Part shown: positions 48,410-60,073 of the stretch, in pieces
Numbering within the stretch: position 1 is the first letter of the stretch
How the letters are laid out: every line of letters begins with the position of its first letter
Origin: Candidatus Saccharimonadales bacterium
GTDB lineage: Bacteria; Patescibacteriota; Saccharimonadia; Saccharimonadales; JBBQAJ01
DNA length: 60,073 nucleotides
Assembly (NCBI GenBank): GCA_038206875.1
Contig: JBBRAK010000007.1
Span: 1 to 60,073 of the forward strand
Direction: 5' to 3'
Notes under the pieces: model-generated
What the model was told of the DNA's origin: nothing
Seen by the model: the letters and a program-made list of their open reading frames with translations, nothing else
Database searches by the model: none
Program-made: the position numbers and the translations under genes

Positions 48410-48845
48410 GTATATGATAACAATCAACAAATATTTACAGAGTGAATAGTCGGGTATATTTAACAACGCTTGGGTAAACAGTATGCCTTTGTGGCGTCTT
48501 TATCCTGAATTATTTCATAAGTTATGGTGGTGTATGCGCTATACCCTGCTCTTACTGGGTCGTAGTAAGGCTAGGATTGTTCGTGCCAGTATAAATGCAC
48601 TAGCCTGTCGGGGTTCTATCGTAAGGACAGATGATGGCAATGCAGTCGCAATGAATCAGTTTGACCCTAACTGGCTATTAATCTAACGTATAAGTTATAA
48701 ACTCATGCTTTTGGTTCAGCACAATAGAGGAAGTTATAACCATAATTAAATGGGATTTACAGATTAATTGCAAAATCAAAAATTAATGCTTGCATCTAAA
48801 GTACATAAGGAGTTTAATAGAGGTGGATAAAATAGGAAATAAAAA

Positions 48846-49298
48846 ATGTCAAAAAAGAAAAAATTAATAAAACAAAATAGATTTAGTTTTTTAAAAAAGT
48901 CGCGAGTGCTTATCGCACTAGTTTTTATTCTAGGAGTTGGTGGAATAGGACTATATAAGCTAAATTCAAGCAGTGCCGCAACGCCGTGCATAAGTCGAAG
49001 ATTTGTAAAAGGTGCACCTAAAAGTGCATGCGTGGCGGATATTCAAGGTCTATTTAATTATCATAATATTATTGAAGGTTATGGTTCTAAACCGTTAGTT
49101 GTTGACGGTGTTTTTGGATCAAACACTGCGAATGCGATACTTATCGTACATGTAAAAGATAATATTAAACCTTACGATTCAGTCGTTGGACCACGGATCT
49201 GGGACACATTATGTGGTCAGGCACTTTACGCTTCAGGAAACCTTCAATGGGCTAAATTGTATGCTATTCATGCAGGTTGCATCCCCCCAACAAACTAA
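48846..49298 (+). CDS. Secreted protein with peptidoglycan-binding (PG_binding_1-like) domain
   Basis: IQGLFN...LVVDGVFGSNTANAI...DSVVGPRIWDTL. Confidence 0.75.
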   Translation: MSKKKKLIKQNRFSFLKKSRVLIALVFILGVGGIGLYKLNSSSAATPCISRRFVKGAPKSACVADIQGLFNYHNIIEGYGSKPLVVDGVFGSNTANAILIVHVKDNIKPYDSVVGPRIWDTLCGQALYASGNLQWAKLYAIHAGCIPPTN

Positions 49299-49385
49299 AA
49301 TGCCCAGCTAAGGGTTGGGATTTATAGATAGTCTCCGGAGACCGGACAGCTTACTTCGTCCTTTTCCGCTCCGGCATGCTCGAAG

Positions 49386-49649
49386 TTACAATTGCTTTAA
49401 TCGTACTAAATCTCCTACGACCAAAGCTTCTTTTTTGGCAACTGTCCAATGTTTGAGTTGCTTCTCGCGTTTCATGGCCAGAGCTCTAGTTTCGTATTCT
49501 TCGCTATAAACCAAATCAAAATCACCGTATTCTTTGATAAATTTAGCACCATGACCCGTGCCATGGTCTTTTAGTCTTTGAGCAATGTTTTTGGTTTGAC
49601 CAATATATAGACGATTCCGGTTGTTGCGAAGAATATATAAGTAGTACAT
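49386..49649 (-). CDS. Stand-alone GIY-YIG nuclease
   Basis: YYLYIL...LYIGQTKNIAQRLKDH...AMKREKQLKHW..KKEAL. Confidence 0.92.
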   Translation of the reverse strand: MYYLYILRNNRNRLYIGQTKNIAQRLKDHGTGHGAKFIKEYGDFDLVYSEEYETRALAMKREKQLKHWTVAKKEALVVGDLVRLKQL

Positions 49650-49671
49650 GCAGATAGTATACAAAAATCTG

Positions 49672-49807
49672 AGTCTTTCGACTCACTGCATTCGCTCAAG
49701 ACATTCGCCACGCTATGCCACTCATACTGAAAGCCATGAGCCCTATCTTCGATTTTGCTCAAGACTGAATGGCCATGGCCATGAGCGAGCATAGCGAGTC
49801 GAATGGC
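49672..49807. repeat. Cluster of nested REP-like imperfect palindromes upstream of the GIY-YIG gene
   Basis: GTCTTTCGACTCACTGCATTCGCTCAAGAC; TCTTCGATTTTGCTCAAGAC; GCCATGAGCGAGCATAGCGAGTCGAATGGC with a decayed inverted partner near 49702-49726. Confidence 0.7.
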
Positions 49808-50037
49808 TCCGTCTAGTTGAAACATTGCGAACTAGTAGTGAGCAGTATGATAATTACGAGTTTGATGACCTGGCTGCTACCGTTCGACTGTATGAACCAA
49901 GTCTAACATTTAGTTTTGATAACCTGTAGTTTCTCACTTGCAAGGCGGGGGTAGTCCCCTTTATTACTACCAAATGAGATACCACCGTATAAATACCGAA
50001 AATGTCGGGGTAAGATTTTCCAAGCGTTTTTTCTGGT

Positions 50038-50265
50038 CTAAATATCCTTGAACAAATCAGCGACATTTACCTTTAGACTATTTGCGATTTTATTCAAAGT
50101 ACCAAGTCTAGCCCAGCGTTTGCCCGTTTCGATATAAGCGATAGCTACGACGCTCATACCTATATTTTCAGCTAGCTCCTGTTGCGTAACGCCTCTGCTT
50201 TTGCGAACCTCGGCAACTCTTTTGCCGAACGCTTTCATCAATTTTTGCTCTGGTGCATTTGTCAT
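50038..50265 (-). CDS. Xre family HTH repressor
   Basis: FGKRVAEVRKSRGVTQQELAE...IAYIETGKR. Confidence 0.92.
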   Translation of the reverse strand: MTNAPEQKLMKAFGKRVAEVRKSRGVTQQELAENIGMSVVAIAYIETGKRWARLGTLNKIANSLKVNVADLFKDI

Positions 50266-50373
50266 ACACCTAGCGTAAAAATTATAAACAGATAGTTACA
50301 TAAACTAACTGTTTATTATTGTTGCTTAATGGTATATATTTGACAGAGACAAATTAAACAAGGAGTTTATGTA

Positions 50374-50934
50374 ATGAACTGGTTCAAAAAGCACAAAATA
50401 CTAACTGTAATCGGCATTATAGTTTTACTAGCTATCATCGGCGGTGCTGCTGGCGGCGGTAATAAGACGGCTACCAATAGCGGCGACACTAAAAAGACAG
50501 ATACTGCCAAGACCGAAAATAAGGCAGCAGTTACGGCCAAACTCAATGAGGTTGCTCGTGACGGAAAATTTGAGTTTACCGTTGCTAGCGTTGAGTGCGG
50601 CAAAACCTCTGCTGGCACAAATCAGTATTTGCAAAAGCAAGCACAAGGCCAATTCTGCTTTGTGAACGTAACAGTTAAGAACATTGCTAGTGAGGCACAA
50701 ACATTTGATAGCAGTAGCCAGTATTTATACGACGCTGCTAACGCTAAATATTCTGCTGACGGCACAGCCTCACTATATGCAAACCCAGAGGGTAGCACGT
50801 TCTTAAATCAAATCAATCCAGGTAACAGTGTAAGCGGTATCTTGGTATTTGACCTGCCTAAAGATAAAACACCAGTAACTGCTGAACTACACGACAGTGC
50901 CTTTTCAGGCGGCGTAAAAGTTAGCTTACAGTAA
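50374..50934 (+). CDS. DUF4352-domain membrane-anchored protein
   Basis: NWFKKHKILT plus TM; AQGQFCFVNVTVKN...INPGNSVSGILVFDLP...ELHDSAFSGG. Confidence 0.85.
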   Translation: MNWFKKHKILTVIGIIVLLAIIGGAAGGGNKTATNSGDTKKTDTAKTENKAAVTAKLNEVARDGKFEFTVASVECGKTSAGTNQYLQKQAQGQFCFVNVTVKNIASEAQTFDSSSQYLYDAANAKYSADGTASLYANPEGSTFLNQINPGNSVSGILVFDLPKDKTPVTAELHDSAFSGGVKVSLQ

Positions 50935-50951
50935 AGTAAACCGACACGCTA

Positions 50952-50978
50952 AAAAAGAGGCTGCATAAGCCTCTTTTT
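50952..50978 (+). terminator. Intrinsic terminator
   Basis: AAAAAGAGGCT-gcata-AGCCTCTTTTT. Confidence 0.85.
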
Positions 50979-51086
50979 GTATATACCGCACCTTACTAAC
51001 TCTGATTAACTTGCCATATTAGCATAAGCATAGTATGGCTGTATTTTGAACAGCTTTAACGGTATAATGTAGGCAGAAAGAAAGAT

Positions 51087-51686
51087 GTGATGACAATGTT
51101 TGATGAGTATTACAGAAAACTATATGGCACTGACCCGCCCTCTAAATTGCCCAAGCCGCCAGCTAACCTTTCCAGCTTTTTGCGGGCTTCACTACCAAAA
51201 CCACAGCCAAAGCCTGGCTTTATACGAGTAACAAAAGCACAGCCACCTAAATTGTATGTGCGTCTAGCAAAGCCTAAAGTATTCGTTAGCTTTGATTACG
51301 AAAATGACCGCCTATATAAACAGGCACTTGATATGTGGGACACCAACAAACGTTTTGAGTTTACATTTCAGAGCCATACGCCTAGCGAAATACAATCTGA
51401 CGATATAAGCCGTGTAAAGGCTGTTCTGACCGCTAAAGTTAAGGCTGCTACGTACGTTATAGTGCTAGTAGGTAAATATGCCAATCAGCCGCACCCAGAC
51501 CGTGCAAAAATCGGTTTCCGTAACTGGATTAACTTTGAGGTTTACCAGGCTAGGTATTACCGTAGAAAAATTGTGGTTGTAATGCTTAATCCGCACAACA
51601 CCCTGCCAGAGTGGTTGCACCAATCAGGGGCAAAACTCGTTAGTAGCTTTAATGAAAAAGACATAATTGAGGCACTGAAAAGCTAG
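51087..51686 (+). CDS. ThsB/MTH538 (DUF1863)-like TIR domain protein with Pro/Lys-rich N-terminal extension
   Basis: KVFVSFDYEND, YVIVLVG and WINFEV (catalytic Glu position). Confidence 0.85.
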   Translation: MMTMFDEYYRKLYGTDPPSKLPKPPANLSSFLRASLPKPQPKPGFIRVTKAQPPKLYVRLAKPKVFVSFDYENDRLYKQALDMWDTNKRFEFTFQSHTPSEIQSDDISRVKAVLTAKVKAATYVIVLVGKYANQPHPDRAKIGFRNWINFEVYQARYYRRKIVVVMLNPHNTLPEWLHQSGAKLVSSFNEKDIIEALKS

Positions 51687-51691
51687 GCGAT

Positions 51692-52345
51692 ATGGCTAAC
51701 ATAACCCCTGATACAAAGCTGACGGTTTTAAGTGAACATTACAATAACACCGTTGCTGACTTTAAAAAGCTCAACAAGGCTCGTGACACTAACTTTCTCT
51801 TTTTACTGATTTTGCTCGGCGTTATGGCGTTTCAGTATGTATCGCCAGGCCAATCGCAAAGCGTCTTGGTCCAAGTGGCACAAAAAAAGTTAGAAATAGA
51901 CGCTACTCTAAGTATCAATGTAATCAGCTCGCTTGTTTGGTTTGCCTTGCTTTATTTGGCCGTTCGCTACTTTCAAAATGTTATCAACATCGAAAAGCAG
52001 TATAACTACACGCACCAACTTGAGAGCGAGCTTGCCAGACACTATAATGGCAAGGCTTTCACTCGTGAGGGCAAGGCTTATTTAGACAATTACGCTATCT
52101 TTTCCGACTGGGTGCATATAGTTTATTGGTATATTTTCCCTGTGCTATTTACTGCTGCTATTACGGTTAAAATCGCTGGCGAGTGGACGGCTGCTAACCA
52201 GAACACGCTGCAAGTATGGCTGAATACTATAATTTTTGCGTCGCTGGTAATCTCAACCGCCCTCTATGTGTTCTCGCTTTACCGAACCCGAAAGAATACT
52301 GAAAAAGACATAAAGAAAAATAACCGAACAGCAAACAAAAAATAA
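51692..52345 (+). CDS. 4-TM membrane protein, candidate effector of the TIR protein
   Basis: About four hydrophobic helices with a soluble linker IEKQYNYTHQLE...FTREG; starts 5 nt after the TIR stop. Confidence 0.7.
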   Translation: MANITPDTKLTVLSEHYNNTVADFKKLNKARDTNFLFLLILLGVMAFQYVSPGQSQSVLVQVAQKKLEIDATLSINVISSLVWFALLYLAVRYFQNVINIEKQYNYTHQLESELARHYNGKAFTREGKAYLDNYAIFSDWVHIVYWYIFPVLFTAAITVKIAGEWTAANQNTLQVWLNTIIFASLVISTALYVFSLYRTRKNTEKDIKKNNRTANKK

Positions 52346-52377
52346 CAGAAATACGCTGTCAGAAATTGTCAGAAAAC

Positions 52378-52764
52378 CTAATTGTTTTCTAATACGTCTT
52401 TCAATTTTTGCAGAGGCTCTTGTGTAAAAGGCTCGTCAAGGTCGCCACTATCAGTCCACTCATAATACTCTAGTTCGCACTGGTTATCATCAATGGGCGT
52501 TAGCGTATATCTGACGTGATAACTGCCGTCCTTTCGGCTCAAAACAAACATAATACCAGGCTCGTAAGCAGTTATTTCATACTCGTTCCAGTTACCCTCT
52601 CGGTCTTGGTTTTTGTAAATCGTGCCTAGTTTAGTAGGTGTTTCGTTGGTTTGCTCTTTAACAATGCCGCCAATCCACTTTGGCGTATTTTTGGGATTAA
52701 GGGTAAAGTCAAAAACCTCTTGTGCTGGTCTGTAAATGGCAATGTTTAGTCTTACGTCTCTCAT
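52378..52764 (-). CDS. SRPBCC/polyketide cyclase family protein
   Basis: IAIYRPAQEVFDFTLNPKNTPKW...LQKLKDVLE. Confidence 0.82.
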   Translation of the reverse strand: MRDVRLNIAIYRPAQEVFDFTLNPKNTPKWIGGIVKEQTNETPTKLGTIYKNQDREGNWNEYEITAYEPGIMFVLSRKDGSYHVRYTLTPIDDNQCELEYYEWTDSGDLDEPFTQEPLQKLKDVLENN

Positions 52765-52768
52765 AGTG

Positions 52769-53431
52769 TTAGCGTGTCTCGACAATCTCTACTCGTGCTG
52801 GCTGCCGCATTATCTTTGCGAACCTGTATTTATAATCATCTTGTCGCAGCTTTATAACCTCGTTGGCTACCCAAGCAGGGTCAAGCATTTTATCTAAATC
52901 GTCTCGCTCTATACCGTCCCAAAATGCCGTGTTCATACCCGCTGGACCAGCTACTAACACTTTGCCAACCCTGCCGTCCTCTGCCACTGAATTGCTAAAG
53001 TGAGCAGCACCAGCCTTTGCAAAGTTATAGATAGGCTCTAGCTTGCGTGGTGTCCATTGAGAGGTAGAGGTAATGGTAACAAGCTCGTCTAATGAGCCTT
53101 GTTTATCTAGCAAAGCCTTAACAAAGTAGATTAGCCCACGTCCGCCAACGTCAATCATTTCCTCTATTTGCTGCTCGCTCAAATCAGTAACTCGGCCCTC
53201 TTGAAAGTAGCCAGCAGCGTATACCAATGTGCTTATTTCTGGCAGCCGCATTACAAGCTCGCCAACCCTTTGAGGCAAGTCAGGTGCTGCTAAATCAAAT
53301 TTTTCATAGTTCAAGCCTGGCTCGTCAAGTTCACGCCGACCAGTAACGTATACCTCGCCACCAGCAGAGTGTAATTCTTTTGCTATCTCTAGTCCCAACC
53401 CTGATGTGCCACCAACAACTAATGCAGACAT
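52769..53431 (-). CDS. Short-chain dehydrogenase/reductase
   Basis: VVGGTSGLG, YAAG and YNFAK (YxxxK) motifs. Confidence 0.9.
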   Translation of the reverse strand: MSALVVGGTSGLGLEIAKELHSAGGEVYVTGRRELDEPGLNYEKFDLAAPDLPQRVGELVMRLPEISTLVYAAGYFQEGRVTDLSEQQIEEMIDVGGRGLIYFVKALLDKQGSLDELVTITSTSQWTPRKLEPIYNFAKAGAAHFSNSVAEDGRVGKVLVAGPAGMNTAFWDGIERDDLDKMLDPAWVANEVIKLRQDDYKYRFAKIMRQPARVEIVETR

Positions 53432-53445
53432 TTTTTAACCTTTCC

Positions 53446-53628
53446 TTAATTCTTTTCCAAATACTTTAATAAATTAGCTCGCTTATAGCGTCGTAAACCA
53501 CGCTGACCAATACGAATAGCTTTAAGTGTGCCTGACTTGTCCCAATTACGCAGCGTGTTCGGGTGCACTTGCAGCAGCTCGCAAGCCTGTTTTAGTGTTA
53601 GCAATTCTGGTAAATCTTTTTGTGACAT
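53446..53628 (-). CDS. MerR/excisionase-like HTH DNA-binding protein
   Basis: LLTLKQACELLQVHPNTLRNWD...GLRRY. Confidence 0.88.
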   Translation of the reverse strand: MSQKDLPELLTLKQACELLQVHPNTLRNWDKSGTLKAIRIGQRGLRRYKRANLLKYLEKN

Positions 53629-53703
53629 ATAACCTCATACTTGATACCATTATCATACAAGAGTGTGAGTAGCTGCGATAGTGCAGTTTTTGAGAAAAAT
53701 GTG

Positions 53704-54939
53704 ATGAAAAAAGACGATAAACAACCAGACAAGCCCAAGAAAAAGCCGCTAAAAAAAGCGGCTGATAAGTCGTTGGCAAACAAAAAGTCTAAACAGCAAG
53801 ACAATAAGCCGACTGAAATTACCCTGCCAGCTAAGTCTAAGCCCAACAATCCGACCCCTGCTCACATTTTTAAAGAAAGACGGTTTAACCTTGACGCTAA
53901 GAAATACAGAGATAGTCTTTCGGTTGAGCAGTGGCAAGAACTAGCCAAAAAAGACCCTAACCTGCTTACGCCAAATCAGACAAAACAGCTAGCAGAGGCA
54001 AACAAGCAAGCCGCCGAAATAGCCAAGCGTTTAACAGAGATGTATGACTTTAAGGGCATAGCGGCTATGTTCAAGACCGTAGATACAATACCGATTACCC
54101 GTGTTATGCAGCAAGCACAAGAAACGGCCCTGGTCATAAGCAAGTTCCAAACTAATCTCATACTGCCAACCATACCGACACAACAGCTTGTAGCTTTTCA
54201 GCAAAACCTAGCAATAACCACTGGTATTATCAACCAGTCGTTTGTGTCGGCAATTAACGCCTCTAACATTTTGCACAACTTTTTCGCAGATTGGCAGATA
54301 ATACACGAGCGGCTAATAAAGGCATTGAGCATTGATATTGGTTCACTAGCTAATAGCCTATCAAGAATAACGCCAACGCAGTTTATTGATGTTGATGTGA
54401 TAGACGTTATTGACCGTGACGGCAATGTAGCCATTATTACTGACACGAGCCAAACCCAGCGTATTAACGATGACTTTATTTATGTAAGCTCGGCCAAAGT
54501 GGACCTGCTATTCACTGAAATACAGGCTAACCGAAAAGAAATTAGCGAGCTAAAGCAGCTTATTACAGGACAACTACCGAGCGGTCTGTCTAAGATTGCT
54601 TATGCTGACGTAAGGTTTATTTTCGAACGTTCAAAAATGATTATTAAAGGCATTGAGGTTGCTGTTTCTCGCACCTCACAGCAAGCTCGGTTTTGTGGCT
54701 TTTTCTTTAGCTCAAGGGACAACTTTATAAAGAAATGGGACATTGTTGAGTTTATGTCTATCGCTTTCGACGAACATAAAGGCATAGATGATGAGGCTGC
54801 TTTTGTAAGTAGAATTAAGGGCATAGTAAACGCTCTAAACGATAAGATAGCGATTGCGAGCAAAGGGCAGATAACACAATTCTTTGTGCTGCTTAGTTAC
54901 GAGGTTTATATCAACCCCGAACATATTTCTAATCTGTAA
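53704..54939 (+). CDS. Hypothetical protein, possibly with a C-terminal winged helix
   Basis: Long ORF; Lys-rich N-terminus, coiled coil, C-terminal ...VNALNDKI...YINP. Confidence 0.65.
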   Translation: MKKDDKQPDKPKKKPLKKAADKSLANKKSKQQDNKPTEITLPAKSKPNNPTPAHIFKERRFNLDAKKYRDSLSVEQWQELAKKDPNLLTPNQTKQLAEANKQAAEIAKRLTEMYDFKGIAAMFKTVDTIPITRVMQQAQETALVISKFQTNLILPTIPTQQLVAFQQNLAITTGIINQSFVSAINASNILHNFFADWQIIHERLIKALSIDIGSLANSLSRITPTQFIDVDVIDVIDRDGNVAIITDTSQTQRINDDFIYVSSAKVDLLFTEIQANRKEISELKQLITGQLPSGLSKIAYADVRFIFERSKMIIKGIEVAVSRTSQQARFCGFFFSSRDNFIKKWDIVEFMSIAFDEHKGIDDEAAFVSRIKGIVNALNDKIAIASKGQITQFFVLLSYEVYINPEHISNL

Positions 54940-54990
54940 AGACATAGTTATCCACCAGTTTAAACTCTGCTAAACAACACGGTCGTCTTA

Positions 54991-55191
54991 ATGGTTACTA
55001 TGCAGCAGCAAAGTAGCCAACAGCCTAAAATCGTCACTCTACAAGACTTTCTTGCCGAGTTAGGTCGAGACGATGTAGCAACCGCCAACTTGGTCGGTTA
55101 CTTTGACGTGCTGATAGAAATGGACCTGGAACTTAAAGAACAAGAAAGGATTGATGAAAATGAGCGACGAAAGCAAACTAGCGATAGCTGA
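54991..55191 (+). CDS. Hypothetical small protein
   Basis: First of the overlapping ORF chain leading to Rep (NLVGYFDVLIEMD). Confidence 0.55.
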   Translation: MVTMQQQSSQQPKIVTLQDFLAELGRDDVATANLVGYFDVLIEMDLELKEQERIDENERRKQTSDS

Positions 55192-55462
55192 TACGGTTAT
55201 AGGTTGGTGCAATAAGTGCCGACTACACGCCGCAATGCTAATAATTTGGAACGCTGAATTAAACGAGATTGAGCAGATTGTGAAAGAGGCAGAGGGTTAC
55301 TTGCCAGCGATTATCGGTAGCCAAGCAGCCTCTAACCATATAAGGTCGCTTATCTGTGACCTAGACCATAAGCAAATGAGGGCAATACGGGCTTATACTA
55401 GCCTACTACTTGAGGGACCGTGTAAAACGCCAGAGTGCCAAGAGGATTGCAATGTTAGTTAG
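55160..55462 (+). CDS. Hypothetical Cys-containing protein
   Basis: SD AAGGA upstream; overlaps both neighbours; CNKC and CKTPEC. Confidence 0.5.
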   Translation: MSDESKLAIADTVIGWCNKCRLHAAMLIIWNAELNEIEQIVKEAEGYLPAIIGSQAASNHIRSLICDLDHKQMRAIRAYTSLLLEGPCKTPECQEDCNVS

Positions 55463-55796
55463 CGAGGTAAACATAGTGCCAGTAAAGCCAAATAACGGCT
55501 TGGTAGCGTTTGCTAGTGTTGTCCTAGATGAAAGCCTGTACCTCGGCTCTATTGGCGTTCACAGCCGCTTAGACGGCTCATATAGGATTACTTACCCTAC
55601 TAAAAAGCTGGGTAGTAAAGAATTGAACCTTTACCACCCGATTAACAGGGATTTTGGCAAGCAGATTGAACAGGCGGTTGTTGCCAAGTGCGAGCAACTT
55701 TTTAAAGGACGTGATGACAATGATAGACACAATAAAGCTAGTGATAAAAATGGACAAACCCCTACACTCACGAGCCAACTTTCAGCCAACGCTTGA
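55452..55796 (+). CDS. SpoVG family nucleic-acid-binding protein
   Basis: VSEVNIVPV...LVAFASVVLD...IGVH...ITYP...HPINRDF..IEQAV. Confidence 0.8.
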   Translation: MLVSEVNIVPVKPNNGLVAFASVVLDESLYLGSIGVHSRLDGSYRITYPTKKLGSKELNLYHPINRDFGKQIEQAVVAKCEQLFKGRDDNDRHNKASDKNGQTPTLTSQLSANA

Positions 55797-56841
55797 TAGC
55801 ATAAACCCTGACTACTTTGGCTATTTCAAAGCAATGGCTAATCCGTCAGCAGCTATCAAAAAGCTCGGCAAGTATCAGCCACGCCTAACCTACACTCAGC
55901 GACCCAGAGGCTATAAACGGGCTGCTTATGAGCTTGCGATTGAGCTGTCGCTACCAAAGATTGCGTTTGGTAATAACTTTGATGAGCTAACCGACGCTGA
56001 TTACAACATTGTTGTTCAACAGCTACAAGATACACTGCGAGAGATGGGTGTTTGGCTGTTCACAAAGCAGATTGAAAATGCAGAGATACGAGCTTTACAT
56101 TACAGCAAGAACTTTGTGTTTAAAGACTACACCTCGTGTTCGACTGTGCTGCAAATGCTACGCACTGCCGATATTAGCAAGCGTTACGACGTGCAAGACA
56201 CCAACTTTCGCAATGGCGGCTATGTTCTACACGTCCACACAAACTCGCTCGACATTGCGATTTACGATAAGCTGGCAGATTTGCGGCAAGCCAAGACTAG
56301 CGAAAAACGTTCGCAAGAAAAAGACAACTTTGTGCAACTTGACCTGCTCGACCAATTAGCTCGGCAACAGCCCGTTGCGGTTATGCGGTATGAGGTTAGG
56401 TTAAATGGCAAAAGAAAGATTAAGGACGCTTTAGCAGTCATCGGCTTTGATAAGCCACTAACCTTTAGTAATGTTTTCTCTGCCGAACTTTCCAAAACCT
56501 TGCTGCAAGACCATTGGCAGAACTTTTTTAGCTCCCTGCCAAAGCTGGCATTAGACACTGATGAGCCTGACAAGCTCCTGGCAAACATTTTGCAGTCAGC
56601 AGACGTTAAAGGTCCATCGCAAGCTGCCGCTAGGCTTGGTATGACGCTACTACTTACAAAGAGCGAGCAACGGCACGTTAGGGCAATGTTTGAGGACCGC
56701 TTTGGCAAACACGCTTGGTCACGGCTCAAGCCGCTCACTAAGCCACCGCACAAGGTCCAATACAAAACCATACTAGGCATTAACCAAATGCTTGAGCAGT
56801 TTGAACCAACCAAAATGGACCAGATTAAAGGTCATCTATAA
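55720..56841 (+). CDS. Phage/plasmid replication initiator (gene II/X, Rep_trans-like rolling-circle type)
   Basis: MIDT start, IELSLPKIAFGNN, IAIYDK and MRYEVRL motifs. Confidence 0.7.
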   Translation: MIDTIKLVIKMDKPLHSRANFQPTLDSINPDYFGYFKAMANPSAAIKKLGKYQPRLTYTQRPRGYKRAAYELAIELSLPKIAFGNNFDELTDADYNIVVQQLQDTLREMGVWLFTKQIENAEIRALHYSKNFVFKDYTSCSTVLQMLRTADISKRYDVQDTNFRNGGYVLHVHTNSLDIAIYDKLADLRQAKTSEKRSQEKDNFVQLDLLDQLARQQPVAVMRYEVRLNGKRKIKDALAVIGFDKPLTFSNVFSAELSKTLLQDHWQNFFSSLPKLALDTDEPDKLLANILQSADVKGPSQAAARLGMTLLLTKSEQRHVRAMFEDRFGKHAWSRLKPLTKPPHKVQYKTILGINQMLEQFEPTKMDQIKGHL

Positions 56842-56892
56842 TTGTTACTTATTGTTATATAATGGTATATACTACCAGAGAAAGGAATTACT

Positions 56893-58413
56893 ATGAAAAC
56901 TAAGGCATTTTTGATAGCAAGGGTCTCTGACCCAGAGCAAAGACAAGCGTTACCTGCACAGGTTTTACGCCTCGAAAAATACGGTAAAGATAAAGATTAC
57001 GACTACGAGCTGTTTGAGTTTGACGAAAGTGCATACAAGGACAACCGTAAGACGTTTGGCAACATTGTAAAAAGTATCCAAGCCTACCCTAATGAGTGCA
57101 TAGTCGTTTTTGATAAAATTGACCGCTATACACGAGACAGTTCAGCCGATGAGGTAAAAATACTCAACAAGCTGCGAGAGGACGGCAAAATTGAGATACA
57201 CTTTCCGTCAGACAATTTATGCGTCACAAAAAACTCTGGTGCTCCTGACCTGTTTCGCTTGGGCATTGGCGTTGCTCTAGCTCGTTACTACTCTGACAGT
57301 ATCAGAGATAATGTTAAGCGACGGTTTGAGCAAAAGCTCAATGATGGCGAGTGGCCTGGTAAAGCACCGATTGGCTATGTAAACCACAGGATTAGCGACA
57401 AAGAAACAACTGTGCTGATAGACCAAGAGCGAGCTGGCTACATTAAAAAAGCCTTTCAGCTACGGCTTGTAGGCACTCCGTTTAGAGGCATAGCCGCTCA
57501 ACTTAAAGCAGATGGCTTGCGTAACAATACTGCTAAACGCACAGCGATTGGTCAGAGTTACGTTGAGCAGATACTTAAAAACCCGTTTTACTACGGCGTT
57601 ATGCGTTATAGTGGCAAGCTATATCCGCACAAGTATGAGCCGATTATAAGCCGTAAGATGTTTGATAAGGTTCAAGCTGTTAATGAGCAGCGTGGCACGA
57701 ACAGGACCAAGAAACAGGCTATTGATTACACGTTCAACGGATTGCTCAAATGCGGTAGCTGCGGTTGTAGCGTGTCGTCTTACACCGCTAAGGGTAACGT
57801 GTATATGCAGTGCAGCAAGGGCAAAGGTCCCTGCAAACAGGTCCATATCAAAGAAAAGGACCTTGTGCCGCAAGTTGCTCAAATGGTCGGCAAGCTAGAA
57901 ATGAACGAGGATATTGTTAAATACGTTATTGATGAGTTGCGTAAGCACCACGACAACCAGCAGCTTTACTATGCCAATGCCATTGAGCAGACCCGTGCCG
58001 AATACGATACAATTCAGAAAAAGCTCGGCATTTTGTATGAGGATAGGCTCGATGGGCGTATTACTCTCAATGACTATGACGAATACGTTAAGGACCTAAA
58101 GGCTCGACAAGAGCAATTAGACGACCAGCTTGTTAATTTGACCCATAATGATAAAAGTTTTCTTTTAACCAGTTCATATCTGTTAGAGATAGCTACAAAA
58201 GCCCCTAAACTATTCCAAAGTTCGAAAGCGGCTCTAAAATCCAAGTTATTACGCTTTCTACTTTCGAACCTCGTAATTCAGGACAAAAAGCTCGTTTTCA
58301 ATCTCAAAGCACCCTTTGATGTAATCGCAGAGTGCTCTCAAAATCAATCTTGGCTCACCACAATAGAGGACGTTATAACCGCAATTAAGCATGATTTTGC
58401 ATACGTAAGTTAG
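56893..58413 (+). CDS. Large serine recombinase (resolvase + recombinase + Zn ribbon + coiled coil)
   Basis: ARVSD (catalytic Ser), DKIDRYTR, APIGY, ILKNPFYYG, YEPIIS and CGSCG...C...C. Confidence 0.95.
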   Translation: MKTKAFLIARVSDPEQRQALPAQVLRLEKYGKDKDYDYELFEFDESAYKDNRKTFGNIVKSIQAYPNECIVVFDKIDRYTRDSSADEVKILNKLREDGKIEIHFPSDNLCVTKNSGAPDLFRLGIGVALARYYSDSIRDNVKRRFEQKLNDGEWPGKAPIGYVNHRISDKETTVLIDQERAGYIKKAFQLRLVGTPFRGIAAQLKADGLRNNTAKRTAIGQSYVEQILKNPFYYGVMRYSGKLYPHKYEPIISRKMFDKVQAVNEQRGTNRTKKQAIDYTFNGLLKCGSCGCSVSSYTAKGNVYMQCSKGKGPCKQVHIKEKDLVPQVAQMVGKLEMNEDIVKYVIDELRKHHDNQQLYYANAIEQTRAEYDTIQKKLGILYEDRLDGRITLNDYDEYVKDLKARQEQLDDQLVNLTHNDKSFLLTSSYLLEIATKAPKLFQSSKAALKSKLLRFLLSNLVIQDKKLVFNLKAPFDVIAECSQNQSWLTTIEDVITAIKHDFAYVS

Positions 58414-58424
58414 TGGTTACCACT

Positions 58425-58622
58425 TTAGTCAAGGCTTGGCTCTAAATTAAGGGGCAGAACAAGCGAGTCATAATCAACCTCTGCGTCACGCTTATATAAA
58501 GGTGTGGCGTCAAGTATGTCTTGAGGTATAACTACTTGTTTTGCCTGTCGGGACAATAAACTAGGCGATACTAAATCTATGTAATCGCGACAGTATTTAG
58601 CAAGTTGTTTTAGATTTGCCAT
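58425..58622 (-). CDS. Hypothetical protein, possibly a truncated N-terminal fragment
   Basis: 65-aa ORF with TATAAT upstream, ending next to the recombinase stop. Confidence 0.4.
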   Translation of the reverse strand: MANLKQLAKYCRDYIDLVSPSLLSRQAKQVVIPQDILDATPLYKRDAEVDYDSLVLPLNLEPSLD

Positions 58623-58892
58623 AATTGTTGTGTATTATACAAAAATTTACCTCTCATTAACAGTAGGAACAGACATCTAATTTGCTGATACGCAACAAGA
58701 TGGTGTTCGTACCCAGCTTTCGTTCTAAAACCTCGCCTATGACCTCTGGAGAGCCGCCAGGGGTACTTTCCCTGGGGTATGTGGTTCATCCTTTTACTTT
58801 TAGAAACACTAAGCAGTGGTACGGAAATTTTTTTCCCAGATTTTCGATCCCTCAACGCCATTTACTGCTATCAGTGCTTTAAAAAGAACTTT

Positions 58893-59078
58893 TCATTTTT
58901 TACTGTTGATCACGGGCAAGATGGTCGTTATCAATTCATCCGCATCGTTTTGAAGCATAGTTCTTTTCGGCTGAACTTTTTGTTTCGACGCAACACGCTT
59001 AAATACTTTTTTTATAACTCCAATTATTGAACTAGCAATAAGACCCCCAATAAAACCGTAAAATATAATACCTAACAT
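58893..59078 (-). CDS. Small membrane protein
   Basis: N-terminal TM; follows 59082..59318 by 3 nt. Confidence 0.55.
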   Translation of the reverse strand: MLGIIFYGFIGGLIASSIIGVIKKVFKRVASKQKVQPKRTMLQNDADELITTILPVINSKK

Positions 59079-59081
59079 GCT

Positions 59082-59318
59082 CTACCCTTCTTTTGGGTAC
59101 TTTTTGCCTAAACGAACATACTTATAGAACCAGATTCCAAAAGCAATCGTTATTAAAGTATTTATAGCAAGCATTACATGGCCATTAACGTCAGCACCAC
59201 CACTACTCTTGTGCCCAAAAATCATACCTGCAATAGCATCAAGTAAGATTGCTGCCGGGATGAAGAATATAAATGATAAAACTACTGTTAAAATTATTTT
59301 TCTAATTTTTCCTGCCAT
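59082..59318 (-). CDS. Small 2-TM membrane protein
   Basis: AGGAGG SD and two hydrophobic helices. Confidence 0.7.
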   Translation of the reverse strand: MAGKIRKIILTVVLSFIFFIPAAILLDAIAGMIFGHKSSGGADVNGHVMLAINTLITIAFGIWFYKYVRLGKKYPKEG

Positions 59319-59451
59319 ACTACCTCCTTAATTAACTGTCTGCTGTGGACTATCGCCAATATTGTAATTATCACATATCAAAAGAGATATAGAAAGTTTT
59401 TGTAGGCTATAGTCTACTGATATATAACACCTACACTGCCATTCTTGTGGC

Positions 59452-59667
59452 ATGGGTAGAACAAGCTCTAAACAAAAACTTGGTAAGAAGTTGCATGATT
59501 TAAGAAAAAATCAGGGTCTTTCACAGGAGCAGCTTAGCTTTATAGCTAAGGTAGATCGAAGCTACATTTCAGAAATTGAGAATGGATTACGCAACCCTTC
59601 ACTGCAAACGCTTGAGAAATTGGCAAAAGCATTGAAAATTAAACTATCTGAACTAACTAATTCTTAG
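59452..59667 (+). CDS. Xre family HTH regulator (C-protein-like)
   Basis: GLSQEQLSFIAKVDRSYISEIENGLRNPSL. Confidence 0.92.
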   Translation: MGRTSSKQKLGKKLHDLRKNQGLSQEQLSFIAKVDRSYISEIENGLRNPSLQTLEKLAKALKIKLSELTNS

Positions 59668-59718
59668 AATTTACTGACAGTAATTTTCTTAAAATCGTCT
59701 ACAAAGCTACTAGTTAAG

Positions 59719-59952
59719 CTAGGGTGTTGTACGAAAATTAAAAGATACTTTGTCCCGACACTCGATTGCATAGTTCATCCGAGCTGAAAAGACGACATTG
59801 GTCCTCATGTGTCTGTAGTAAGTGTCCTTCGATACTCCAGCCCATGCACAAGCATCAGCCACACCATAATTGTTTTTTAGAGCATCAGCTATCATTTCCA
59901 TCCTACCGATGGTCATTTTCACGGGTCTTCCCACGCCTTTTCTGTAGGTCAT
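59719..59952 (-). CDS. HTH protein resembling a phage terminase small subunit N-terminus
   Basis: GRPVKMT...ADACAWAGVSKDTYYRH...F. Confidence 0.55.
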   Translation of the reverse strand: MTYRKGVGRPVKMTIGRMEMIADALKNNYGVADACAWAGVSKDTYYRHMRTNVVFSARMNYAIECRDKVSFNFRTTP

Positions 59953-60073
59953 AGATCTCTTTTTGTTTTTAATATCTCTTACTTATTATGACAGGTGTCT
60001 TAATTTGTGATTCATGCCCTAAATTCTAGAACCAAACGCAACTTGCGTTAAGTCTAGCTGTTTATCTTGGTTT

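Follow-up and report, generated by a model that had tools for sequence, protein, structure and literature searches.

An integrated Saccharibacteria element with its attachment core inside its own serine recombinase gene

Gene content and ends of the element

The window analyzed here is 60,073 bp long. It is the whole of contig C7 (JBBRAK010000007.1) in the 863-kb genome of a Candidatus Saccharimonadales bacterium (GCA_038206875.1), and its closest loci are labelled Saccharibacteria. In the labels below, L denotes related loci, P recombinase proteins, G genomes, X sequencing runs, and C contigs of the source assembly. Positions 49804 to 58350 are best explained as an integrated element of 8,547 bp with its attachment core at codons 487 and 488 of its own large serine recombinase gene. 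We place the probability of this explanation as a whole at about 0.82.

The recombinase gene (56893 to 58413, plus strand) encodes 506 aa. It contains the resolvase, recombinase, and zinc-ribbon domains (PF00239, PF07508, and PF13408, all above their cut-offs), and the N-terminal serine is invariant in the alignment. Codons 1 to 486 are the element's own, and codons 487 to 506 lie across the junction. The protein ends in WLTTIEDVITAIKHDFAYVS. The hexamer TGGCTC forms the W-L codons 487 and 488 at 58351 to 58356 (plus strand), and it is also present at 49804 to 49809 (plus strand). The frame that begins at 49804 is open for 41 codons without a start codon and ends at a TAG stop (49927 to 49929). 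A sequence-only reading of the window had described these two hexamers, the recombinase end, and the 41-codon frame, and we reproduced all of them. It had also proposed that the hexamers are attachment sites. TGGCTC is common: the plus strand of the window has 15 copies and the two strands of the genome together have 440, of which 77 open a frame of 41 codons or more. The peptide pattern given for the two tails matches only 2 of the 440 copies, and the pattern was itself drawn from those two. The hexamer repeat was ruled out as evidence in its own right by the 440 genomic copies. The real support for the boundaries is the comparison with relatives.

The boundaries are shown by the breakpoints of these relatives. 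Those aligning from 49804 and up to 58356 carry recombinases that are 72 to 98% identical to that of the window. The alignment ends exactly at 58356 in 11 of 13 close loci, and at 58354 and 58360 in the remaining two. It starts exactly at 49804 in 7 of the 13; 4 do not extend to the left end because they are cut or truncated, and in the last 2 a homologous arm is present (by motif or tblastn). The 60 bases 5' of the left TGG are 12 to 30% identical between the window and 7 relatives. Both element ends share 6 to 8 bases in relatives. Assembled contigs from run X1 break at 49809 and at 58356. Loose contig ends occur at 49804 in X2, X3, and X4 and at 58356 in X1 and X3. The two junctions therefore vary in nature. 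The proposed boundaries, with an attachment site inside the recombinase gene, were thus borne out by the relatives' alignments. The recombinases of the best relatives also match residues 1 to 488 only, through the W-L and no further. A scan of 40000 to 60073 against Rfam returned no match, and a promoter scan gave chance-level results only.

The ten close elements are 6.6 to 9.9 kb long. They share a core module that runs from an excisionase-type helix-turn-helix (HTH) gene to the recombinase, with six of its genes in 10 of 10 elements and one in 9 of 10. Pfam was run on the 13 listed open reading frames (ORFs) of the element and PHROGs on 9 of the 13; the list starts at 50 aa. The excisionase-type HTH protein (53446 to 53628, minus strand; PF12728, E 5e-14; TIGR01764 above cut-off; 10/10 elements) begins the module and is a candidate directionality factor. 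It is followed on the plus strand by a 432-aa protein (53641 to 54939; 10/10) with no family match, which falls in an unnamed Saccharimonadota Atlas cluster (0.93). Two small plus-strand ORFs without a family match span 54991 to 55462 (66 aa, 54991 to 55191, 10/10; 103 aa, 55151 to 55462, 9/10). A SpoVG-like nucleic-acid-binding protein is next (55410 to 55796, plus strand; PF04026, E 9e-9; 10/10) and may bind single-stranded DNA. The module is completed by the Rep gene and the recombinase.

Cargo genes recur in 0 to 4 of the 10 close elements. An XRE-family regulator (50038 to 50265, minus strand; PF01381, E 6e-14) has a match in 8 of 10. A DUF4352 lipoprotein-like protein (50374 to 50934, plus strand; PF11611, E 8e-33) gave weak Sie-like PHROG matches and is found in 4 of 10. 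A ThsB-like TIR protein (51087 to 51686, plus strand; PF08937, E 6e-9; PADLOC ThsB1, E 9e-11) and a 217-aa hydrophobic protein (51692 to 52345, plus strand) are each found in 2 of 10. The latter has no Pfam, PHROG, or PADLOC match and no named family, only unnamed Atlas clusters (0.96). These two genes are 5 bp apart, and both are present in L002 and L004. They are a candidate two-gene defence system without ThsA. The remaining cargo is an SRPBCC/polyketide-cyclase-like protein (52378 to 52785, minus strand; PF10604, E 3e-8; 1/10) and a short-chain dehydrogenase (52769 to 53431, minus strand; PF00106, E 3e-18; 0/10).

The Rep gene (55711 to 56841, plus strand; open frame from TTG 55654) encodes a rolling-circle initiator that a profile of its homologues and a structure model assign to the Rep_trans / inovirus G2P type. 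The gene II-like Rep of the sequence-only reading is consistent with this assignment. PF05144 (G2P N-terminal) is matched by 14 of 40 aligned homologues, whereas the window Rep itself has no Pfam match. The model has a predicted local distance difference test score (pLDDT) of 88, and its top four Foldseek matches are 4cij (E 2e-4). It aligns to RepDE and 4cij with Z of 8.5 and 8.3 and root mean square deviations of 6.5 and 5.8 over 213 residues; the next Z is 5.9. The model is also close to those of inovirus G2P. Residues Y185, D186, K187, R226, and E228 are invariant. Residue 130, in the R-x-x-D motif, is D in 22 of 40 homologues and H in 18, including the window Rep; the change separates clades, and the residue is a likely metal ligand. 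The Rep profile gave no meaningful match to PDB sequences. Rep had no match in 72,556 plasmids and no tblastn match in 50,697 phage records. Scans of IMG/VR returned one recombinase at 33%, no Rep relative, and no arm.

The circular form of the element would replicate through this Rep by a Rep_trans-type rolling circle. No origin, coat, morphogenesis, or coupling gene was recognized in the element. A hairpin at 55610 to 55639 was considered as an origin and rejected, as it is not conserved among related spoVG genes. The Rep protein could instead be a relaxase, and the element an integrative mobilizable element (IME) that uses the conjugation pore of a helper and does not replicate itself. Rep_trans-family relaxases mobilize IMEs (PMC7563843), and no capsid genes were found. 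However, no coupling protein or relaxosome gene was recognized in the 13 ORFs, the nearest profiles are inovirus G2P replication proteins, and related contigs assemble as circles. The two roles are compatible, and we regard the IME alternative as rather unlikely. A filamentous prophage or phage satellite would account for the G2P-like Rep, the adjoining small SpoVG-like protein, the excisionase, and the defence-like cargo. No Zot/pI ATPase or coat protein match was found among the listed ORFs, however, and the phage searches gave only the single IMG/VR recombinase and no tblastn match to Rep, which makes this alternative very unlikely. The earlier statement that capsid and conjugation genes are not recognizable was confirmed. 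A satellite lifestyle had also been suggested, and we found no evidence for it: no capsid-hijacking or terminase gene was recognized among the listed ORFs, three of which, in the core, carry no assignment.

The tRNA target and the stored tail

The W codon of relatives is followed by DNA that is antisense to a tRNA 3' end, and TGG is the antisense of CCA. The left core of the window is likewise the antisense of the tRNA-Asn 3' end GAGCCA. The comparison took in 90 related loci (duplicates included) whose recombinases are at least 45% identical and align as far as residue 440 or past it. In 68 of them, the W codon of the recombinase marks the start of a tRNA gene. The remaining 22 have a tRNA-like arm (7), an element-type arm (4), or something else (7), or could not be scored (4). 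The usual integrated tail of this recombinase family is thus tRNA antisense (WLGRPDSN..., WLRQLGSNQ...). The target is mostly tRNA-Asn; ARAGORN labels some of the intron-bearing ones Thr or Tyr. The target tRNA-Asn appears to be interrupted in its anticodon loop by an insertion of about 230 to 540 bases in L003, L007, L008, L011, L013, L016, and L032. Asn-type elements have the core TGGCTC, and the Asp-type L010 has TGGCGG at both ends. The core therefore follows the target tRNA. A different serine-recombinase element lies at tRNA-Arg(GCG) in L081 (G003:C1:130155-140115). A P-loop-type protein replaces Rep in it, its recombinase also reads into its tRNA, and its left arm encodes WYSIINEVRT....

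The motif CGAA(C/T) is at position 25 of the left (element) arm in the window and in 9 of 10 relatives. The T-loop CGAA(C/T) is at position 20 of the right (tRNA) junction in 9 of 10 relatives. The zinc-domain motif of serine integrases sits 5 bp further out in the attP arm than in the attB arm (PMC3783163), and the difference between 25 and 20 matches this shift. By analogy, the recombinase may read the T-loop sequence TCGAAC of the tRNA as its zinc-domain motif, which in the element arm would lie another 5 bp outwards. Motif spacing would place the crossover near core positions 5 and 6.

Synteny was based on the genes at 1 to 26 kb of the window and on contig C10. In three genomes of the same genus, tRNA-Asn lies between homologues of the C7 genes (3' side; G002 and G003) and homologues of the C10 genes (5' side; G001 and G002). 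G003 has three arms stacked beside tRNA-Asn. This arrangement indicates that tRNA-Asn lies beyond the right end of the window contig, and the window element was likely inserted at its CCA end. The queries used for the left-flank genes had no match in G002 and G003, which left the comparison without an exact empty site.

Positions 49804 to 49929 (plus strand) comprise the element's own P' arm, with CGAAC at position 25, and a recombinase tail of 41 codons without a start codon. All 8 copies, from the window and 7 relatives, have their stop at codon 42. Codons 11 to 41, beyond the DNA motif, have 15, 10, and 27 variable columns of 31 at codon positions 1, 2, and 3. The ratio of nonsynonymous to synonymous variation (pN/pS) is 0.29, uncorrected and from related sequences, versus 1.24 and 2.74 in the other frames. 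By this pattern of variation among the copies, the tail is shown to be protein coding and under purifying selection.

Homologous tails are naturally fused to the recombinases P0005, P0008, and P0161. P0161 (529 aa, on an 8,857-bp contig) has the homologous element tail, and P0162 (499 aa, on a 122-kb contig) has a tRNA-type tail; the two are 99.8% identical over 486 aa. A search for more fused tails with residues 462 to 529 of P0005 returned only the query itself among 11 candidates. A model of P0008, recombinase plus tail, gave two helices at low confidence (predicted template modelling score 0.34) and is uninformative on contacts. The recombinase tail ends in ...FSFDNL, which was considered as a degron; no transfer-messenger RNA (tmRNA) was called in the assembly.

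Terminal repeats were present in 2 of 164 related loci, L093 (55 bp) and L096 (123 bp), and L094 is circularly permuted. Each of these three carries Rep and a recombinase with an element-type tail. L093 is a circular permutation of the integrated L034, with the right end (97.6%) joined to the left end (95.7%) through the 6-bp core. Circularization of the window element would give its recombinase back the conserved 41-residue tail kept at 49804. A different tail on the circle was predicted beforehand, and the fused homologous tails on relatives' circular contigs agree with it. L093 and L096 also carry a gene pair (570 aa and 943 aa) that resembles, by size and by eye, a type III restriction-modification system.

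The foreign arm and the tandem array

The present 20-aa tail of the recombinase is supplied by an attachment arm of the WLTTIEDVIT family (58351 to 58413, plus strand). Under the attL/attR assignment of the sequence-only reading, this tail would be a host-derived counterpart of the tail at 49804. That needs correction, as the WLTTIEDVIT... tail is neither host nor tRNA sequence. Of 401 genomes from the order, 50 contain the arm pattern, with at most three occurrences per genome; the reversed control gave 0. Around pattern matches, 14 of 20 regions have a tRNA downstream, either at the following junction or at one beyond it. Units between arms of this family are 0.3 to 15 kb long, and the short ones are without a recombinase. 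The arms also head elements of 9 to 13 kb. Four of these (L213, L216, L218, and L221) end in a recombinase that is 24 to 26% identical to that of the window and reads in frame into tRNA-Asn. By the family pattern, the downstream tRNAs, and the other recombinase clade, the arm at 58351 is shown to be of foreign origin and to belong to another element family. That one pattern fits both tails reflects their shared nature as element-type attachment arms, although they come from two different families.

The usual tail is tRNA antisense, so the right site here is likely a P-arm/P'-arm hybrid and not a standard attR. The attL/attR assignment of the sequence-only reading was therefore right about the ends and probably not about the nature of the right site. 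With two element-type arms at the right end, excision of the window element alone may well be disfavoured in its present state. Such excision would still be conceivable, as intramolecular attP x attP recombination has been reported for the LI integrase and Ccr (PMC3783163).

Positions 58357 to 60073 appear to be the left part of a neighbouring, likely younger element that is cut by the contig end. It contains small ORFs of 61 aa and 78 aa, an XRE gene (59452 to 59667), and a 77-aa HTH gene (59719 to 59952). L213 begins with the 58351-type arm and shares two small ORFs with 58.9 to 59.9 kb of the window, and the HTH gene is shared with an element in G003. Run X1, which may be the source sample, bridges 58327 to 60018 without differences. 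The last 64 bases of the window (60010 to 60073) match C12:24564-24626 (97%), and the X1 contig departs after 60018. This end is a repeat or an assembly join.

A repeat search found a stronger repeat that the sequence-only reading had overlooked. An outer arm of the WLTTIEEVIT family lies at 48712 to 48759 (plus strand) and reads WFSTIEEVITIIKWD. It matches 58351 in 27 of 30 bases, with 81% over 48 bases, and is of the pattern found in the 50 of 401 genomes. It is likely the left end of an older cassette of 1,092 bp. The cassette cargo (48846 to 49298, plus strand) encodes 150 aa with a weak peptidoglycan-binding/endolysin-like match (phrog_1493, E 9e-4; NF052335, E 0.002, far under cut-off). 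This near-repeat of 48 bp could instead bound the mobile unit (48712 to 58350) and leave 49804 internal. It is far stronger than the hexamer, and L008 has the same arm 1,027 bp outside a 49804-type arm. Against this, relatives begin at 49804 with unrelated flanks, and apart from the window's own copy no compared locus matched 48760 to 49803. The arm also goes with a different recombinase clade, and excision would only give back the same tail type. We consider the larger unit highly improbable; 48712 as the true left end is largely refuted by the starts of relatives, the unmatched segment, and the clade of the arm.

The order is thus likely the 1,092-bp cassette at 48712, the window element, the younger neighbour, and then tRNA-Asn, which together would form a tandem array. 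This order is suggested by L213-type units, which begin with the same arm and end in a recombinase and tRNA-Asn.

Cassettes without a recombinase, 0.3 to 2.8 kb long, lie at tRNA-Asn in L211 to L228 and in L167 (G003). Their ends, immediately ahead of the following TGG, carry hairpins of a small number of recurring types. Viewed on the strand of the tRNA, the hairpins read as terminators directly after CCA. Some resemble the recombinase gene ends of full elements (L221 versus L214), which suggests that these cassettes are internal-deletion derivatives. A further arm family (WLPIQVTELLQ...), with the motif at an intermediate offset, occurs at L002:11459 and in L108, L123, L215, L223, P0004, and P0157.

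A GIY-YIG nuclease gene (49386 to 49664, minus strand; PF01541, E 1e-18) lies outside the element. Beside it, an imperfect palindrome (inverted repeat I1; 49671 to 49809) abuts the left junction and ends on the attachment core (fold z of −3.9 for 49665 to 49810). Short motifs related to the 49386 to 49809 region occur at C11:11718, C11:27632, C1:129857, and C13:15671, and a tRNA gene lies no more than about 150 bases from each of the last three. In L218, too, a GIY-YIG gene adjoins tRNA-Asn. The gene and the palindrome may form a small mobile unit of their own with a preference for tRNA ends.

Role of the tail and comparison with known systems

We propose that the element inserts at the CCA end of tRNA-Asn through a core within its own recombinase gene. 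Insertion would remove its own 41-residue tail, which would stay stored at 49804 until a circle restores it. The tRNA-derived tail was then likely lost when a member of another element family inserted, which gave the recombinase its present tail of 20 residues. Elements would stack with the newest next to the tRNA, and the window copy would probably be a poor excision substrate until its neighbour leaves.

Several observations weigh against this account. No circle or empty-site joint of the window element, as the sequence-only reading would expect, was seen in the assembled contigs of four runs, although contigs drop rare forms. That check covered assembled contigs only, X1 may be the source sample, and runs with a small share are uninformative on habitat. 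The circular relatives have recombinases only 51 to 52% identical to that of the window element. Tandem copies can also collapse into circular contigs: L099 opens with the same junction and includes L096 at 100%. tRNA-Asn is missing from the source assembly, and the target here therefore rests on relatives and synteny. The motif CGAAC is found in the right arm of attP only, with no clear mirror in the left arm. Constraint on the tail is weaker than on the body of the enzyme (pN/pS of 0.29 versus 0.08). The tail region of the P0008 model has a pLDDT under 50 for residues 480 to 516. A WLRLVETLRT tail was found in none of the 15 members listed of the recombinase's 90% cluster (of 40 among 82).

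As for the tail itself, we lean slightly towards a switch, in which the element's own tail makes the enzyme fully integration-competent and its loss lowers or redirects activity. The tail may instead be a C-terminal helix that serves only folding or stability in the circle form, with the overlap as an economy and the integrated enzymes weaker or unstable. Integrated tails in the 90% cluster and close loci vary freely, from 4 to over 50 residues. The P' tails of distant clades share only about their first ten residues, which double as the DNA site, and model confidence for the tail is low. Selection, however, reaches 31 codons past the binding motif, and the conservation of an excisionase-type gene implies a continued need for the integrated form to excise. 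In Mx8, specificity was altered after such a swap (PMC6070905). We hold the no-switch explanation to be the less probable of the two, though a serious one.

Foreign element-type tails recur in the window, P0152 (same 90% cluster), L227, and L038. Among 61 distinct arms of the 58351 family, 59 have no stop within 16 codons and vary mainly at third codon positions, although many head cassettes without a recombinase. These observations are compatible with a portable on-switch, and simple inheritance from full elements explains them equally well. The helix encoded in the attachment site would then work across clades about 25% identical. An incoming element, or a cassette without a recombinase, would re-tail the displaced enzyme, which would now be an active resident integrase loading small cargo cassettes into the array at tRNA-Asn. 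We regard this as speculative and unlikely. If true, it would be an integron-like system of Saccharibacteria, and this genome would be its re-armed state.

With this element, the 2011 DsiB idea becomes testable: that a serine integrase, by its own recombination, gains or loses a tail that sets its activity. Natural versions of one enzyme carry three types of tail (own, tRNA-derived, and foreign) and can be compared directly. The family is also a source of a small replicon and a tRNA-targeting integrase native to Saccharibacteria. Its arrays would explain the stacking of defence-like and metabolic genes at tRNA-Asn in these reduced genomes.

SCCmec elements use the serine recombinases CcrAB or CcrC and form composite tandem islands. 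The window recombinase matches the Ccr profiles at E 1e-16 to 2e-10, with 40 to 60 bits versus cut-offs of 700 to 900. Unlike SCCmec, the window element has a single recombinase and a tRNA target. Integrons have the tyrosine recombinase IntI and attC hairpins, whereas the enzyme here is a serine recombinase with tRNA-end-type arms, and only the array layout is alike. The phage integrases of LI/A118, phiC31, and Bxb1 have attP outside the int gene. They share the resolvase, recombinase, and zinc-ribbon domains of the window enzyme and the element-arm motif 5 bp further out (PMC3783163). Unlike in these phage systems, the host left arm here is almost unconstrained and tandem stacking is common. 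Tycheposons also stack at tRNAs, mostly with tyrosine enzymes (bioRxiv 2020.12.28.424599).

The Rep protein shares the initiator fold and the Y-x-K and R-x-E motifs with pT181 RepD, RepSTK1 (4cij), and inovirus G2P, at 10 to 14% identity. Like the Rep_trans/MobT IMEs, the element is small, integrative, and without its own transfer machinery (PMC7563843).

The closest design is that of the Dehalococcoides ssrA islands. The dsiB gene always overlaps attL, with its stop outside the island (McMurdie et al. 2011, PMC3146451). Its authors suggested that DsiB may have full function only in the circular form or next to an island that provides the 3' fragment (PMC3146451). This anticipates both the tail swap and the foreign tail. 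Both systems have a large serine recombinase that overlaps the attachment site at its 3' end, tandem arrays, and neighbours without a recombinase (PMC3146451). The DsiB islands differ in their target (ssrA/tmRNA versus the tRNA CCA end in relatives of the window element) and in their genes (dsiB-dsiA-parB-mom, with no replication gene; PMC3146451). None of dsiA, parB, and mom was found by Pfam among the 13 element ORFs. The available portions of the DsiB account report no circle with a fused tail and no test of selection on the tail (PMC3146451).

The window enzyme is a serine recombinase with a 6-bp core, unlike that of the tailed myxophage Mx8. The Mx8 integrase is a tyrosine integrase. In Mx8, attP lies inside int, and integration gives the gene a new 3' end and alters specificity, which has been tested experimentally (reviewed in PMC6070905). 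The literature covered, mostly open-access papers, gave no described Saccharibacteria element of this kind. The design itself was previously proposed for DsiB and shown for Mx8.

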